A DNA stretch of 63,909 bases, counting the filler, from Stramenopiles sp. TOSAG23-6 (lineage: Eukaryota): assembly GCA_900128565.1 (NCBI GenBank). It is 26 parts of 26 records of this genome, joined end to end, with 100 filler letters (N's around TTAATTAATTAA, not from the genome) between each part and the next. Parts side by side here need not be neighbours in the genome. Positions count along the whole stretch, not along the records: positions 54,228 to 56,573 come from LT638103.1; 25 more parts are not named here. The stretch is one strand, 5' to 3'. Made by a program: the position numbers and the translations under genes. Positions 7,847 to 63,909 of this stretch are shown here, piece after piece (the stretch's first letter is position 1; each line of letters opens with the position of its first letter). Under the pieces are notes generated by a model. The model worked only from the letters and a program-made list of their open reading frames with translations, ran no database searches and had not been told where the DNA came from.

Positions 7847-8494
7847 ATGGGACTTTCTATTGCAAAGCTGTGGGATTCGTGGGCTGGATTAGGTGGTTCA
7901 GAATGTGGTATCTTAATGGTTGGTCTTGACGCAGCTGGTAAGACGACCATCTTATATAAGTTAAAGTTGGGGGATGTGGTCTCGACCATTCCTACAATTG
8001 GTAAGTTTCTACATCAAACACTCTTTTTGTAAAAAGTAGTACATCAGTATGGTAACATTGCTAATATAAAGTATTATTTTATATTATATTTCCACATTAT
8101 AGGATTCAACGTAGAAACTGTTCAATACAGGAACATCAAATTTAATGTATGGGATGTCGGAGGACAAGATAAAATTCGACCACTTTGGCGTCACTACTAT
8201 AAGGGTGTCAGTGGTGTAATCTTTGTCGTTGACAGTAACGATGCAGCTCGTTTTCCTGAAGCAAAGAAAGAATTGGAGATAATGCTAAGTAAAGAAGAAT
8301 TACTCAAAGATGTGGTCGTATTGGTTTTTATAAACAAACAAGATTTACCCAAGGCGAAAAGTCCTCAAGATGTTGTCAGAGCATTGGGTCTAAATAAAAC
8401 ACGTCAAAAATGGTGGGCCCAAGCATGTTGTGCGACAACAGGTGATGGTTTATATGAAGGTTTAGATTGGTTATCGAATGAATTGAAAAATTGA
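7847..8494 (+). CDS. ARF: ADP-ribosylation factor family GTPase (exons 7847-8000, 8103-8494)
   Basis: MG start, [53 protein letters not shown]. Confidence 0.95.
8001..8102 (+). other. Canonical GT-AG spliceosomal intron, unrelated to the repeat family
   Basis: GTAAGT...GCTAAT...TTATAG; removal restores PTIGFNVE. Confidence 0.95.
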
Positions 8495-12224: not shown

Positions 12225-12378
12225 ACGTATTGTGAAAAAATATTTCAAAAAAAAATCGTTAGGTACGAAATTTCGTATNNNNNNNNNNNNNNNNNNNNNN
12301 NNNNNNNNNNNNNNNNNNNNNNTTAATTAATTAANNNNNNNNNNNNNNNNNNNNNNNNNNNNNNNNNNNNNNNNNNNN

Positions 12379-19348: not shown

Positions 19349-19631
19349 CCACAGAAAGAACGTTTTGAAGATAATACAGCTTTTATTGGCACCAACAGCT
19401 CTTGTCACAGCGCCTCAATGAAATTTTATAATACTAGATTGAATTATGCTTACAAAAACAACAATATTTATACAATTTTATTTGAAGAATCATTTCATAA
19501 TAAAATTTAATTTTAATTTCGAATTTTGTTTTTACTATGATTTTTCGTACCTAAACATTTCTTTTTTTTTAATATGTCTTCGTTTTCACAGCAACGACAG
19601 GAGCTTTACCATCTGCGTGGGACACGACCAT

Positions 19632-41968: not shown

Positions 41969-44323
41969 ACTCATGCGCGATATTCTCAGATATAAAAAAT
42001 ATCATTACAATAGTGAAAAGAATTCAAGCAATTGTTGTAGAAACACCACACAAACAACTTATTAAATGTCTTTGCGTCGACTTGTCGAAACAACTCCATA
42101 TTTTTACACTCTTGATGCAGCGTGGCAAGCAATAAGTACTGGAAAGTCGGCAAATATCTCTTCTTTTATTTCGTCTGTTGTTTCAATATCTCCAAATGAT
42201 CGAATTAATATGTGGCTCAATAAAAGTGGTGCGTATGATCTCGCCGCTGCGTCAAATGCTTCAGAGTCTCTATCGACTAACTCAGATTTTAGTGATTATT
42301 ACAATCATCTTCGAACTTTGAGTATCAAACAGCTACCTCTGCAACACAGCAAACGTACACAGTTACACAAAACACAAAGCGAACATAACCCTACTAATGA
42401 TGAAATTTCCACAGAGTCAAAAACAGACACTACCCCTAACCCTAATCCCCGAAAATTAGTANGAGAACAAATTGAACGAGATATCAGAAGAAGTGGTGTT
42501 ACTGGAGGTCTTGTTGAAGTTCTCCGTCGTGTATTATTCGCCTACGTAGAACGTAATCAAGAAGTTGGTTATAGTCAAGGNATGAACTTTCTTGCTGCAC
42601 AATGTCTTCATATAAAAATGTCAGAAGANCAAACATTTTGGGTTCTCTCTGGTTTGATGTACGTTTTCATAACCCTAACCCTAATTTCCCTAATTTCATT
42701 TTTTTTTTTTTATAGTACATGTTGTACCTAACAATTTTTTGTAACAAAAGAAAAATTCACAATACATTGAAAAAATCCTAGGAATTGATTTTTTTGATAA
42801 GGATTTGACTGGTGTATTGGTAGACTGCGCAGCGTGCACACANATATTACATACTAAATATGANTGTTTACTGTCAAAATTTGAGACGTCNCACATNCCN
42901 TTATCTGGGATTTTAAGTAATATGTTAATGTCTTGTCTGACAAATGTTGTACGTTTTAGTTTTTTTCAATTTTTATCTAAATTTNTTTTTCGTACGAAAT
43001 TTCGTACCTAACAAAAAAAATTAAAAAAAGAAAATATGTTTTCACAATATATGTTCCGACTGAATTATCAATTATATTTTGGGATTTTTGTTTTATTATT
43101 GATTTCAGAATTTTTTCTTTTTCAGTTGTGGTTACATTTTTTGATGCAATTTCTGGTATTATATATTCACCTCTACGTTCATCTGATATACGTGACAAAT
43201 TTTTAAGTGATGACAATTCAAAACATTCAAATTCAAAACATTCAAAACATTCAAATTCAAAACATTCAAAACATTCAAAACAGTCAAAACATTCAAAAAC
43301 AATTGAAAATAACATTGTGGATGATGATTTTGTACTTGTAGCTGAAAAACCCATAGANGATGATCATGTACTATCAACATCACCTGATATTATATTGTTT
43401 GAAATATTGAAAAAATGGCGTAATGTAAAAGTAAAAATTCACAAGTTGAACAACCCTAACCCTAATGAGAGTGAACACGTCCGACTTGATGAAATGAGCC
43501 ATTCAATTATTCTTGAGTCTCTTCATCATATTCTCTCATATAAAGATGACAAAGGAAAATTAATGTTATCTACTCATAGTATTCATCAATGTAGAGAAAA
43601 AGCTTTCATTGAAGTCAATTTATCAAAGAAAGTACACGAAATCAGTCAAAATAATTTTCAACTCTCTCANTTAGGCTATTTGGAATCTATTCGCACAACN
43701 TTACTATCTGCTCGACGTGGTATCACTTCACCAATATTGTTTACAGCATCTTCATTTTATTTACAACATCATTGTAATGTCATTGAAAGGATTAATAAGT
43801 TGTTACTATTAATTAAAGAGTTGCATCCTTTTATGAATCAACATGATACAAACACAAACAGGTTAGGTTTTTTTTGTATGTCCAATGTTGTAAATGATGT
43901 AAATGATGATGTAAATAATTCTACTGGTAGAAAAACAAAGTATGAGAATACATATAATACACCAATATGGAGTGGTGGCTGGAGTTGTTGTGAAGAAGAA
44001 AAGTTATTAAAAAATATTGCTTCAACAATATTTTCAGTGTCAACTATTTCATTTCACTCGGAACCATCAGAAATTCAAAATGTGGATCATCAAAAAAAAA
44101 ATTCTGAAAATTTTAAATTATTGGAAGACATGAAAAAAGAATTGTTACAGATATCACAATTGATTGAAAAAGTCATAACAGCTGCACCAGTGTATAGATT
44201 ATTAACAACTATTGAAGAAAAATTTACCAACACATCTGTAAACCCNAACCCTATAAAAACTAGTCGAACTGTAAACCCTAACCCTATAAAAACTAGTCGA
44301 ACTGTAAACCCTAACCCTATAAA
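41969..44323 (+). CDS. Rab-GAP TBC domain protein (exons ..42658, 42768-42948, 43053..), truncated
   Basis: QIERDIRRS, LRRVLFAY..RN.EVGYSQ.MNFLAA, FWVLSGLI|EKIL, NV|VPTELSIIFWD. Confidence 0.85.
42659..42767 (+). mobile_element. Introner-like GT-AT intron containing (CCCTAA)2
   Basis: TGAT|GTACGTTTT...TGTACCTAAC...CACAATACAT|TGAA. Confidence 0.83.
42949..43052 (+). mobile_element. Introner-like GT-AT intron
   Basis: GTT|GTACGTTTT...CGTACGAAATTTCGTACCTAAC...CACAATATAT|GTT. Confidence 0.83.
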
Positions 44324-47993: not shown

Positions 47994-48091
47994 AAATATT
48001 GTGAAAAAATATTTTTGGTCAAAAAAATCGTGAGGTACAAAATGTTACATGAAAATAAATGTAGGTAAAAAATTCAATTTTGGAAACATAC
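47994..48091 (-). mobile_element. Introner-like GT-TT intron
   Basis: CTT|GTATGTTT...TTTTGTACCTCACG...CACAATATTT|GTATGC. Confidence 0.7.
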
Positions 48092-49176: not shown

Positions 49177-49461
49177 GTGTATTTTGGAAAAATATTTCAA
49201 AAAAAAAATCGTTAGGTACAAAATTTCGTACGNNNNNNNNNNNNNNNNNNNNNNNNNNNNNNNNNNNNNNNNNNNNTTAATTAATTAANNNNNNNNNNNN
49301 NNNNNNNNNNNNNNNNNNNNNNNNNNNNNNNNAAAACAAAATGTAAAAAAACAAGCAAAACGATAATATTTTTCGTATGAAGTTTTGAACCATTACACTT
49401 AATCCCACAATCGTTAGGATCGATAAAATCTCAATCAAACAACTTAAAATCAGTAAAACCT

Positions 49462-54227: not shown

Positions 54228-55355
54228 TTCTATCTAATCTAGGATAAAGCCATTTATTCAAACGTGGAAAATCAACGACATTTGTCACAGAATCCAACCA
54301 TGTATATGTAGCTGGCACGCTCTCTACAATAGGAGTACTTGAATTGAATTTTTGATATAAAATGTTTGTTGTAATCTTCTGTATTTGTAAATATATACAT
54401 TTTTGTTTGTAAAAAAAATCGTTAGGTACGAAATTTCGTATGAAAAAAAATTAAAAGTTTGAAATTGAAAAACGTACATTTTCTTCGTCAATATCTAAAC
54501 GTAAAGCGCTGCCAGGAGTTGTTGCATTTCTAGGAAATGGAAGGGAATGCCACTCCAACCCAAATAACTCCCCTATTGCATCCAAGTCCGTATCATGTCC
54601 AACTAAGGCTAGTGTTTTTTCTGTTTTCGTGTTCTCTGATGATAATAGAAAATCCATAATTTCAGAAGCCATTTCAAATTATAAACATCACTTTCAGAAG
54701 CTCGACCCCAAGCTACTGGCTCACCACTTCCTTGTTGCATTAAAAATGCTTCCGAAAAATCCGAAGCAACAGAGATACCCCCTGTTAAGCGTATACTAGT
54801 ATTGTTTATTTTGTTTGGTATATCAACTAGGGGGGGTGCTTGTCCGTGACCTAATATACTATCTTGAAGTTTCAGAAGTAATGATACAATGCTGCTAGAT
54901 ACAGGATTAAGATCAAAACGTTTCTGTAATTCGTGTTTTAATGTTTGGCTGTCCAACGGTGGACAAAGACCATGTCTAGTCGGAGAGAATAGTTCAGGGG
55001 CAGCTTCGTAATATGCAGGAAGATTCATTCCTGAAAGTAACGCTACCGCTGTATCGTTATCACGTTTGCACGATGTATCAACTTTCATCAATATATCCCC
55101 CGGAAAAGAATCTTTAAGTTGAGCCCCCATACTCGTAACAGTCCCAAGCCCATTGGGAAGACACTGGTAAACAGGTACAGGCCAACCCGGAAACGCATTT
55201 GAGGTGTAGTTGTTGAACTGATTAAATCCATCTGCCCCACGAACAGTTGTTGGTGTTGACCTTAGACAATGTCTGAAAATAAACACAGAACGACGAGGTA
55301 GTGCATTTACTAACACTATCATCGAAATCATATTTAGAATTGTAAGCATAGCCAT
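54228..55355 (-). CDS. Secreted histidine acid phosphatase/phytase (AppA/Agp-like); frameshift near 54675, intron 54379-54477
   Basis: Signal peptide, RHCLRSTP (RHGxRxP-like), LVGHDTD, TPGSAL. Confidence 0.82.
54379..54477 (-). mobile_element. Introner-like intron with canonical GT-AG ends
   Basis: AAT|GTACGTTTT...TACGAAATTTCGTACCTAACG...TACAAATACAG|AAG; frame stays open to the contig end. Confidence 0.85.
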
Positions 55356-61384: not shown

Positions 61385-61464
61385 ATATGTTTTATATGAA
61401 TTTCTAATTTAATTTTTTTTTCATACGAAATTTCGTACCTAACGAATTTTTTTTTGAAATATTT
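61385..61464 (+). mobile_element. Introner-like intron beginning AT instead of GT, truncated (copy 63830-63909)
   Basis: AGATT|ATATGTTTTATATGAATTTCTAATTT...TACGAAATTTCGTACCTAACG; otherwise matches the copy at 56522. Confidence 0.78.
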
Positions 61465-61564: not shown

Positions 61565-63909
61565 TACAAAATTTCGTATGAAAAAAAAATTGGAATTTGA
61601 AAAAAAATAAAACATACATTTGCTGCCTGAAACAGTGGATCCGCATCTTCTAAACCTGCTCTTATCCATTGATCAATTGCTTCTGCAGTACATTTTTCTG
61701 GGACGTCTAATAATGATATTATGGAAGCACCCTTAAAATTTACATCCATTTGAGCATCCTGTTCAGAATATTTTTCTGGTTTCATGAAAATGGAGTATAA
61801 AACAGGTTCCTTTATACATTTTGTTGCCCATTCATGTGGAAAGAGTATGGTCCCATTGGGATCTTGGATATAATAACTTCGACATTCAAATATAGAGTCG
61901 ATATTTTTTTGTAGCAATCGCGTTCGAGGAACCCTTTTGATTGTTTCTGGTTTGTCATGTACACCTATTCGTATCAAGTGCATTGCAGCTGGATTATTCT
62001 TTTGTGGATCTTTTACGACTTCTTCCTTTCGGTTGAATTCAGGTTTTTTAAATTCAGGCATTTTTTCTGGTGGAGAGGGTGGGGGTTTATAGTCCATCCC
62101 CTTTGGAGCTGCCATTTTAAAAGAATGTAAACAATTTAAGTTTCTGTGACCTTTGAGTGTAGTACCTATATGTAGAATGCTATTCTTTACAAAATGAAAA
62201 AGAACACGGACGTTGAAATATTTAACGGAAAGAAACTGTCACTTTACTACTACTCAGTATAAATACTTTTTAATTACTACGTAGTAGCGTCCTAACTGTG
62301 GTAGTAGTCCATATTACCGCATGCATCTACTACATATTCAATAGCTCATATTTTGATAATGCAATATTCTTAAAGAGACATGACGTTTTTTGTTTGCATT
62401 GGTGCTTGTTCATTACTTGATTAAGACGAAGACGAAACATCAGCCCTGTTTTATGCAATAGTTTACAATTTTATAATTTTGTGTTGAAGCAAAAGGCTAA
62501 AATAAACAGTCAAATGAGTTACAGGAAAAAAGATAAAAATAATCAAACACAAACTATTTTGACAAAAAAATACACAGTTGGTCACAGAAATCCTTCCAGA
62601 ACTCGAACATATCGACCTGCCAGTGCGCCACTTAGACGATTCAATCCTCAGTCACCTAAAAGAATACAAAAAGATGCTCGAAGCATACACAAAGATGCTC
62701 GAAACATAAGTACAAATAGTCAGTCGCCACGTACACATACACGCAATCGCCCACCAAGACTACTCAAAGGCAATACAAATAGCAGAGTTGCGTGGGCATC
62801 ATCAAACTTTGGTGCAAGAAAATGGAGAGCTTTGAAGGGAAATAGTAGATTTAGTTTTGTAAAAAATGTTCGCAGTCAGTGCTTTCGCCAAAGAGACGGG
62901 TTGAAAAATTTCAAAAACAAACCAGCTACAAAACAAATAGTACAACAGAAGAAATTAGTTGATACATTTGATAACATTTCTCCATCTGCGTCAGGTATTT
63001 CGGATCACTCTGTAGATTTTATGAATTTTGGTGTACAGAGTACTCACCTAACCCCTAACCCTAGAGCGATAGATAAAGATTCATACAATCGTACTCATAT
63101 ACCAGCGAATAGAAAACCGATATTAGTTGTTAAAAATCCCTTGGAAAATATTTCCACCAAAATCAACGACCCAAAAAAGACAATAAATTCCGTGAAATAT
63201 AGTCATAGTACTCATTGCATTAGTACTGAAAATTCGAATGAGACAAAAACCGCTATTGTAGCTCCACCACATTTAATTACAAATGATAACATATGTAGTT
63301 TCATGGATAAAAAAATAGATAATACACAAATCATCATGCCTTCAAAATCAAACTATATACAACATCAACTAAAGCAAAACGAGGTTCAAGAAAATGTAAA
63401 ACGTCAAATACAAATACGTCAATCAATAGAAGAAAACAATTTATTGTGTCAATCAAGCACAAAATATGAAAAACAAGAAAAGAAACGAGTAATTATAAAA
63501 AATACCCATAAAATACGTATAAAAAAGCAACAACGAGAAAAAGAATTGGCAAGTCTACGCGCAATTATTCAACCATTATCATCATCAAAACCGTTTACTG
63601 GTACTGGATCTTTGCATTTTTATAAATTGGGAAAAGTACTTGGTCAAGGTTCATTCGGGTGTGTACGCCTTGCATCCCATAGACTTACAGGTACTAAAGT
63701 TGCAATAAAAACATATGATCGAGATCAATTTCAAAATTGTTCAGTGCAAGCTTGGGCACAAGTTCAACGCGAGTTCCGCCAAGAAGCTGCCATTCTATCG
63801 ACTATAAAACATCGAAGTATCGCAAGATTATATGTTTTATATGAATTTCTAATTTAATTTTTTTTTCATACGAAATTTCGTACCTAACGAATTTTTTTTT
63901 GAAATATTT
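61565..63909. repeat. Duplicate of contig 59120-61464
   Basis: Same sequence and ORFs, offset 2445. Confidence 0.97.

Follow-up and report, generated by a model that had tools for sequence, protein, structure and literature searches.

The window and its genes

The window, that is the whole 63,909-nt stretch of DNA that was analysed, consists of 26 contigs of 2345-2379 nt each, joined by falling length; adjoining contigs are not genomic neighbours. The linkers between contigs have the structure N44 + TTAATTAATTAA + N44, and N runs recur every ~2.46 kb. Three pairs of contigs are identical (6/7, 16/17 and 25/26) and contig 15 is almost identical to 16 and 17; intron copies in duplicate contigs were counted once. 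The GC content of the window is ~0.24-0.39. Long open exons encode photolyase-like, ARF-like GTPase, RPA1-like, IFT56, kinase, RabGAP-TBC and GT47 proteins, all of them ordinary eukaryotic proteins. The contig at 22253-24619 was found in two small DNA runs and in seawater metagenomes and metatranscriptomes, and we infer that the source is an uncultured marine eukaryote with an AT-rich, compact genome. A protein-cluster search with IFT56 returned animal-dominated clusters only, which was not decisive for its placement.

A search of the window against Rfam revealed no snRNA and no other Rfam family, and Pfam assigned no family to the genes near 54379 and 31382; the window holds no U2AF gene either. 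Spliced products were sought with a 57-aa kinase exon among proteins of near and of longer length, and with a 116-aa TBC exon among those of near length, and nothing was found. A search of metagenome contigs with a 23-nt exon stretch gave a single match, in a 658-kb contig of unrelated sequence, which was rejected as a chance hit. Several read-through ORFs of the window contain NPNPN stretches in their translation.

A repeated family of short introns

The window contains one repeated intron-like family of ~35 copies with a length of ~100 nt (90-140 nt). These many sequence-similar short introns lie in unrelated host genes (kinase, GT47, TBC, RPA1-like). A 17-nt core, GGTACGAAATTTCGTAC, has 62 matches on both strands against 0.17 expected, and an nhmmer profile built from 24 copies found 62 hits, duplicates and antisense echoes included. 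Curation resulted in 25 full copies and nine further 3' ends, which together give 34 distinct 3' ends; 24 full copies entered the MAFFT alignment. A plus-strand 'copy' at 19511-19565 ending in CACAG was dropped because the end of a minus-strand coding sequence extends into it, so that it is no intron. Many contigs end inside a family copy, as would be expected if the repeat is abundant and interrupts assembly.

In sense orientation the copies start with GTAYGT, followed by a T-rich arm, a palindrome (GTACGAAATTTCGTAC) with CTAAC directly attached, a T tract and the tail CAMAATAC plus two bases. The 5' hexamers of the 25 copies are GTATGT (14), GTACGT (7), GTAGGT, GTACAT, GCACGT and GTTTGT (one each). 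All 25 copies thus start with GT except the one at 22959-23050 (minus strand), which has a GC donor. Conservation of the donor among the 24 aligned copies (G1 24/24, T2 23/24, A3 23/24, G5 23/24, T6 24/24) compares with a mean interior identity of 0.83. The GTAYGT donor fits pairing with U1 and U6, and CTAAC agrees with the general consensus of branch sites. The distance from CTAAC to the 3' end is 29-55 nt.

Pairing between the ends of a copy is limited to ~6 nt (ATGTAT/ATACAT) and loosely similar T-rich arms. The predicted RNA fold of the copy at 54379-54477 was no better than that of shuffled sequences (z = 0.00), and donor position 4 and tail position -6 showed no covariation, with G at -6 in just one of seven GTAC copies by reading. 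Frames are open across the predicted boundaries in 18 of the 26 copies listed; in the others the flanking exons are short or the contig ends inside the 90 nt that were tested.

Two copies show peculiarities of their 5' parts. A kinase-gene copy at 61395-61464 (plus strand; duplicate at 63840-63909) starts with ATATGT instead of GTATGT and has lost its 3' end at the contig end; otherwise it is near the subfamily of 24288-24393. The copy at 42659-42767 (plus strand) carries telomere-like CCCTAA repeats in its 5' arm.

Ends of the copies and junction repeats

The 34 distinct 3' ends are AT (24), TT (5), AG (3), GT (1) and AC (1), so that 31 of 34 are not AG. The GT and AC ends belong to two partial copies on the minus strand, at 12227-12278, where AG follows directly, and at 49178-49232; the 5' flanks of both are lost at contig ends. 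In the alignment of the 24 full copies, the last column holds T in 21 and G in three copies and the penultimate column A in 21 and T in three.

Both flanks are known for 24 copies. Thirteen of these have AT before the donor and AT at the end, and four have TT in both places, so that 17 of 24 repeat the two nucleotides before GT as the last two nucleotides of the intron. These repeats bear out the original prediction that many copies can be read in two registers, as GT..AT or, with both cuts two bases further upstream, as AT..AC. Both registers remove the same length; reading frames cannot discriminate between them, and the junction codon alone differs. The end of a copy follows its upstream flank: TT ends have TT upstream in four of four cases, though TT stands upstream in only five of the 24 copies (hypergeometric p = 0.0005). 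The repeats usually cover 2-4 nt left of the junction and 0-5 nt right of it. Long junction repeats are TTGTATG (7 nt) at 47994-48091 and ATGCAC (6 nt) at 22959-23050, both on the minus strand. In the sequence, the junction repeats behave like a target-site duplication from which the intron obtains its 3' end.

In the remaining seven copies the two dinucleotides are discordant. Four of these end in AT (a slash marks the exon boundaries): 23482..23576 (minus strand; gatc/GTACGT...ATACAT/gtag), 24116..24229 (minus strand; agtc/GT...ATATAT/gtgt, with scattered N inside), 31382..31494 (plus strand; gcac/GT...AAACAT/attc, without a junction repeat) and 42949..43052 (plus strand, in the RabGAP-TBC gene; tgtt/GT...ATATAT/gttc). 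Upstream of the donor they have TC at 23482 and 24116, AC at 31382 and TT at 42949. The junction codon of 31382-31494 would be read as His in the GT..AT register and as Tyr in the shifted one. The other three are the copies that end in AG, with AT upstream at 54379 and 32365 and CA at 23602.

Splicing in metatranscriptome contigs

RNA sequences were compared for positions 22253-24149 only; they are metatranscriptome contigs of depth 2-6, not a transcriptome of this organism. Copies of the family are spliced out of mRNA, and the lengths that are lost fit GT..AT or GT..TT. Removal was seen for four copies, all on the minus strand, for three of them by joints and for one by a loose end. The TT-ending copy at 23820..23942 (GTATGT...CACAGTACTT, 123 nt) is absent from two contigs of two studies, X10 record 6 and X6 record 13, which both join 23818 to 23942 at a CTTG junction repeat. 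The AT-ending copies at 23331..23423 (93 nt) and 22726..22822 (97 nt) are removed in X6 record 9, which joins 23329 to 23423, and in X8 record 24, which joins 22724 to 22822. For the AT-ending copy at 22478..22578 (101 nt), X8 record 23 ends at 22481 and continues with 12 letters identical to the exon upstream. Within the junction repeats all joints are left-normalised, and GT..AT or GT..TT and the equivalent shifted registers fit them alike.

The copy at 23820-23942 permits no GT-AG reading in any register. AGs lie 28, 19 and 5 nt upstream of its used TT end, the last one as TTTTTTCACAG, and all are bypassed in both RNA contigs; AG is hence not the selecting signal in this copy. The original prediction had called the AG ends of the family canonical acceptors, which is overstated in view of an AG skipped in RNA from two runs at a distance of 5 nt from the end.

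By reading frame, eight other copies would also have to skip internal AGs 17-37 nt upstream of their ends (5 nt in 23602-23699).

Among the flank-discordant copies, for which cDNA had been proposed as the deciding evidence, RNA reached only the one at 23482-23576. A piece of X6 record 9 stops there at 23478, where GT..AT predicts 23481 and the shifted register 23483; it fits neither register as written, a point against GT..AT as it stands. A masked repeat at 23204-23240 accounts for the left end of X6 record 9, not for the stop at 23478. The stop could reflect either a strain SNP at 23479 or the removal of 98 nt in frame. An A to C change at 23479, where an AGA codon begins, would be synonymous (CGA).

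The second of these options would imply a 3' end that is flexible: the donor would be GT, the acceptor would not be fixed and another nearby site would be used where the flanks differ, so that the AG and AT columns of the alignment need not mark the cut. The copy at 23482-23576 would then be cut 3 nt downstream (GT..TA, with the same product as TA..AG). The stop at 23478 corresponds exactly to such a 98-nt in-frame removal, and the 3' dinucleotide of the family is already variable (AT, TT, AG, GT and AC). However, this evidence comes from a single contig of low depth (3.47), and a synonymous A-to-C change at 23479 would look alike in RNA contigs that differ from the window at ~1-2% of sites. 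Moreover, all four joints are read at the position two bases behind the tail, and the reading frames fit this position as well. We consider a flexible 3' end unlikely.

Element sequence reaches a summed depth in the thousands in polyA metatranscriptome contigs, against 2-6 for the flanking exons, and many RNA contigs pass from the element into unrelated flanks. The excess of element depth over exon depth indicates that unspliced copies, or DNA, are common in those libraries.

Copies ending in AG

The three copies ending in AG lie at exactly the coordinates given originally, and their AG falls, as had been stated, in the alignment column where other copies have AT, or in some cases TT. The copy at 54379..54477 (minus strand; GTACGT...ACAAATACAG, 99 nt) scored 44.5 bits with nhmmer, and the frame is open across its junction. 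Its flanks (aaaat upstream, aagatt downstream) share no junction repeat, so that cDNA would be unambiguous here: GT..AG predicts ...GAAGAAAAT/AAGATT... and the shifted register ...GAAGAAA/AGAAGATT... The gene that holds this copy shows, by reading, a frame change at ~54606-54680 (within 54600-54690, minus strand), between an ORF ending ...QKKH-stop and one reading MASEIMDF...GHDTD. An assembly error of 1 nt or a small intron that went unrecognised could explain it.

The copy at 32365..32494 (plus strand; GTATGT...TAAAATACAG, 130 nt) interrupts a GT47 exostosin-like gene. It is the most diverged copy, with the lowest identity to the consensus of all 24 (0.66) and an nhmmer score of 8.3 bits (E = 0.065), and it has neither the core palindrome nor a junction repeat. 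The copy at 23602..23699 (minus strand; GTACGT...CACAGTATAG, 98 nt) in a CaMKK-like kinase gene is near the consensus (identity 0.88, rank 4 of 24; 51.8 bits). It contains a second AG (CACAG) 5 nt upstream of its end, use of which would break the frame; the terminal AG alone keeps it. The AG copies have GT and AG like canonical U2 introns; these use the first AG behind the branch point, which in 23602-23699 would break the frame.

The terminal dinucleotide departs from AT or from the repeat in three of 24 copies (12.5%), where drift as in the interior would lead one to expect ~32% (p = 0.03). In each of the three, AG has replaced AT, a change of T to G; when the partial copies ending in GT and AC are added, three of five changes are T to G (p = 0.035). 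An asymmetry between changes in the upstream and the terminal dinucleotide did not reach significance (Fisher p = 0.07 or 0.52, according to the way in which AG was counted). Conversion of AT to AG is plausible from these comparisons. The AT kept upstream of GT in two of the three AG copies fits an AT duplication of which the intronic copy has undergone a T-to-G change. The interconversion of acceptors by single T/G changes that had been suggested is in this respect supported for 54379-54477 and 32365-32494, whereas 23602-23699, with CA upstream, does not show it. An enrichment of AG ends in more diverged copies, also suggested before, was not found: the three copies, too small a number for further conclusions, rank 4, 17 and 24 of 24 in identity (one-sided Mann-Whitney p = 0.29).

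Alternatively, the AG ends may not have arisen by drift at all. The elements could have inserted at targets containing AG, or the AG copies could be older, unrelated GT-AG introns that resemble the family tail. Insertion at AG would suit 23602-23699, which has CA/G upstream and TA/G at its end and would share AG..G if the element starts with TACGT. Resemblance would suit 32365-32494 with its missing core palindrome, and it has a parallel in the ARF-like GTPase gene, where an ordinary GT..AG intron at 8001..8102 (plus strand; GTAAGT...CACATTATAG) that was not scored as a family member has a similar tail (CACAATACAT, ending in TATAG). The intron at 8001-8102 may be a very old family member, or the likeness may be a coincidence. 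Against this alternative, the bases before GT in 54379-54477 and 32365-32494 are AT and not AG, and 54379-54477 and 23602-23699 are full-length members with 44.5 and 51.8 bits. An origin of the AG ends other than by drift strikes us as quite improbable.

The junction codon in the GT47 gene

The exon upstream of 32365-32494 encodes a GT47 domain (Pfam PF03016). We searched its 63 aa against 1.84 billion representative sequences and obtained 70 hits, 66 of which reach the end of the exon and beyond. Splicing as GT..AG would give ...IPI/I-I-G-D, and the shifted register ...IPI/S-I-G-D. Directly behind IP[VI], the 66 homologues carry I (27), L (19), V (16), F (2), M (1) or A (1) but never S, so that 62 of 66 have I, L or V; the following positions (L/V/I, then G/D/S, then D/E) agree too. 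This comparison supports the predicted GT..AG register for 32365-32494. As the AG of this copy aligns with the AT of the family, it would also support GT..AT for the family as a whole, with the caveat that the test leans on the most diverged copy, the family membership of which is weak by its E value. Junctions in the kinase genes lie in variable segments. In the TBC gene (42949-43052) the junction residue would be Val in the GT..AT register versus Asp in the shifted one; TBC proteins usually have a polar residue at this position, which is a variable one, and the residue was judged uninformative.

The shifted register would place both cuts two bases upstream (AT..AC or TT..AC) and leave the terminal AT, TT or AG in the exon, like the AT-AC introns. 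Seventeen of 24 copies can be read in this way without a change to the mRNA, 20 of 24 have AC directly before their final two bases, CCTAAC bears a loose resemblance to the branch box of U12 introns, and the copy at 61395 starts with ATATGT. The predicted Ser at the GT47 junction, however, has no counterpart among the 66 homologues. Both ends would have to vary in the discordant copies (TC..AC, TC..AT, AC..AC, TT..AT, CA..AT), and the near-invariant GTAYGT would be left unexplained. We regard this register as very unlikely.

U12-type introns start with ATATCC or GTATCC, and their branch box lies 10-20 nt before the 3' end. Many copies are formally readable as AT..AC like the U12-type AT-AC introns, but a U12-type reading was rejected, since none of the 25 donors fits ATATCC or GTATCC, the branch-like CTAAC box lies 29-55 nt from the end, and the shifted register is contradicted in the GT47 gene. 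The original description of the 5' hexamer as unlike that of U12 introns is confirmed by GTATGT in 14 and GTACGT in seven of the 25 copies.

GT..NN is the register best supported by these sequence comparisons, and for the discordant AT copies it is a prediction. The claim that GT..AT is the true register has gained from the GT47 homology at 32365-32494 and from the near-invariant GTAYGT; the RNA piece at 23482-23576, which does not stop where GT..AT predicts, is a point against it.

Discussion

We propose that the copies form a transposon-like intron family spliced in the GT..NN register, in which the copies ending in AG are ordinary members with a terminal change from T to G, cut at the same position as the others. 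We hold this reading to be probable. The family would consist of 'introner' or MITE-like elements, of putative mobility, that lie inside coding exons of unrelated genes. The major spliceosome would cut at the GT, and the 3' cut would be made at a fixed position behind the conserved tail CAMAATAC, where AT, TT or AG are tolerated. The last two bases of the intron, which often together with the first exon base repeat the bases just upstream of GT, would stem from a target-site duplication. In the three AG copies the terminal T would have become G with the position of the cut unchanged.

AG appears to be neither necessary nor sufficient for the choice of the 3' site in this family. It is conceivable, and we suggest it only tentatively, that the 3' site is set by its position behind the tail (CAMAATAC plus two bases), with the last two bases derived from the target-site duplication and without recognition of AG; the AG ends would then be tolerated variants and no reversion.

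The use of non-AG 3' splice sites throughout a genome is known chiefly from Fritillaria, from Euglena-type introns and from some dinoflagellates. Henriet et al. 2019 reportedly described the non-canonical introns of Fritillaria as derived from MITEs.

These non-canonical introns of Fritillaria are the closest published analogue of the family, as far as the accessible parts of two papers go. In Fritillaria pellucida and F. borealis, AT is the commonest 3' end (44% and 34% of introns, respectively) and most introns end without AG (Soo et al. 2026, PMC13326754). A YAY triplet stands upstream of the 5' site and recurs as the last three intron bases, creating the 3' site (PMC13326754; PMC11282704), and an origin from transposons with TIR and TSD has been proposed (PMC11282704). 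The introns with a 3' AT keep a U-rich tract, and the main intron classes of F. borealis start with AG (PMC13326754). The family described here is similar in its majority of non-AG ends (31 of 34), in the frequency of AT (24) and in the short junction repeat that supplies the intron end. Its last triplets are mostly CAT or TAT, also CTT, TAG and CAG, and the upstream triplets are often CAT, AAT or GAT, to be compared with YAY. In contrast to what these parts of the Fritillaria papers report, the donor is a conserved GTAYGT (GT in 24 of 25 copies, GC in one) and not that of AG/AC or AG/AT classes, and one sequence family dominates. The Fritillaria type is further marked by a duplicated U2AF and by snRNA changes. 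The host also differs in that it looks like a single-cell assembly of a compact genome and not like an animal, judging by the small runs and the long intron-free exons.

The introners of Micromonas, Aureococcus, dinoflagellates and other groups carry one splice site and co-opt the other from the duplication (Huff et al. 2016 and Gozashti et al. 2022, both as cited in the accessible part of PMC11282704); those of Micromonas co-opt AG from a 3-nt duplication (PMC11282704). The present family shares with them, as they are described there, the many near-identical short introns in unrelated genes, a target-site duplication on the scale of 3 nt, one splice site brought by the element with the other taken from the duplication, and the removal from mRNA. 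It differs in that their co-opted site is a canonical AG, whereas the duplication here mostly provides AT or TT and AG stands at three of 34 ends.

No paper that links GT-AT ends with introners came up in a literature search, though Henriet et al. 2019 or the supplements of Soo et al. 2026 may already describe GT/AT classes. By comparison with the accessible parts of these sources, the family works in the manner of these systems, but its donor is a canonical GT and its ends are AT or TT.

If the 3' site is indeed chosen by position, this would imply an altered machinery for 3'-site recognition outside the tunicates. A family with a GT donor, AT and TT ends, AG variants at the same position and a skipped AG would provide a natural test of site choice in the second step of splicing, and it bears on the creation of introns by transposon insertion. 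For the organism itself, standard gene finders will mis-call nearly all of its interrupted genes.
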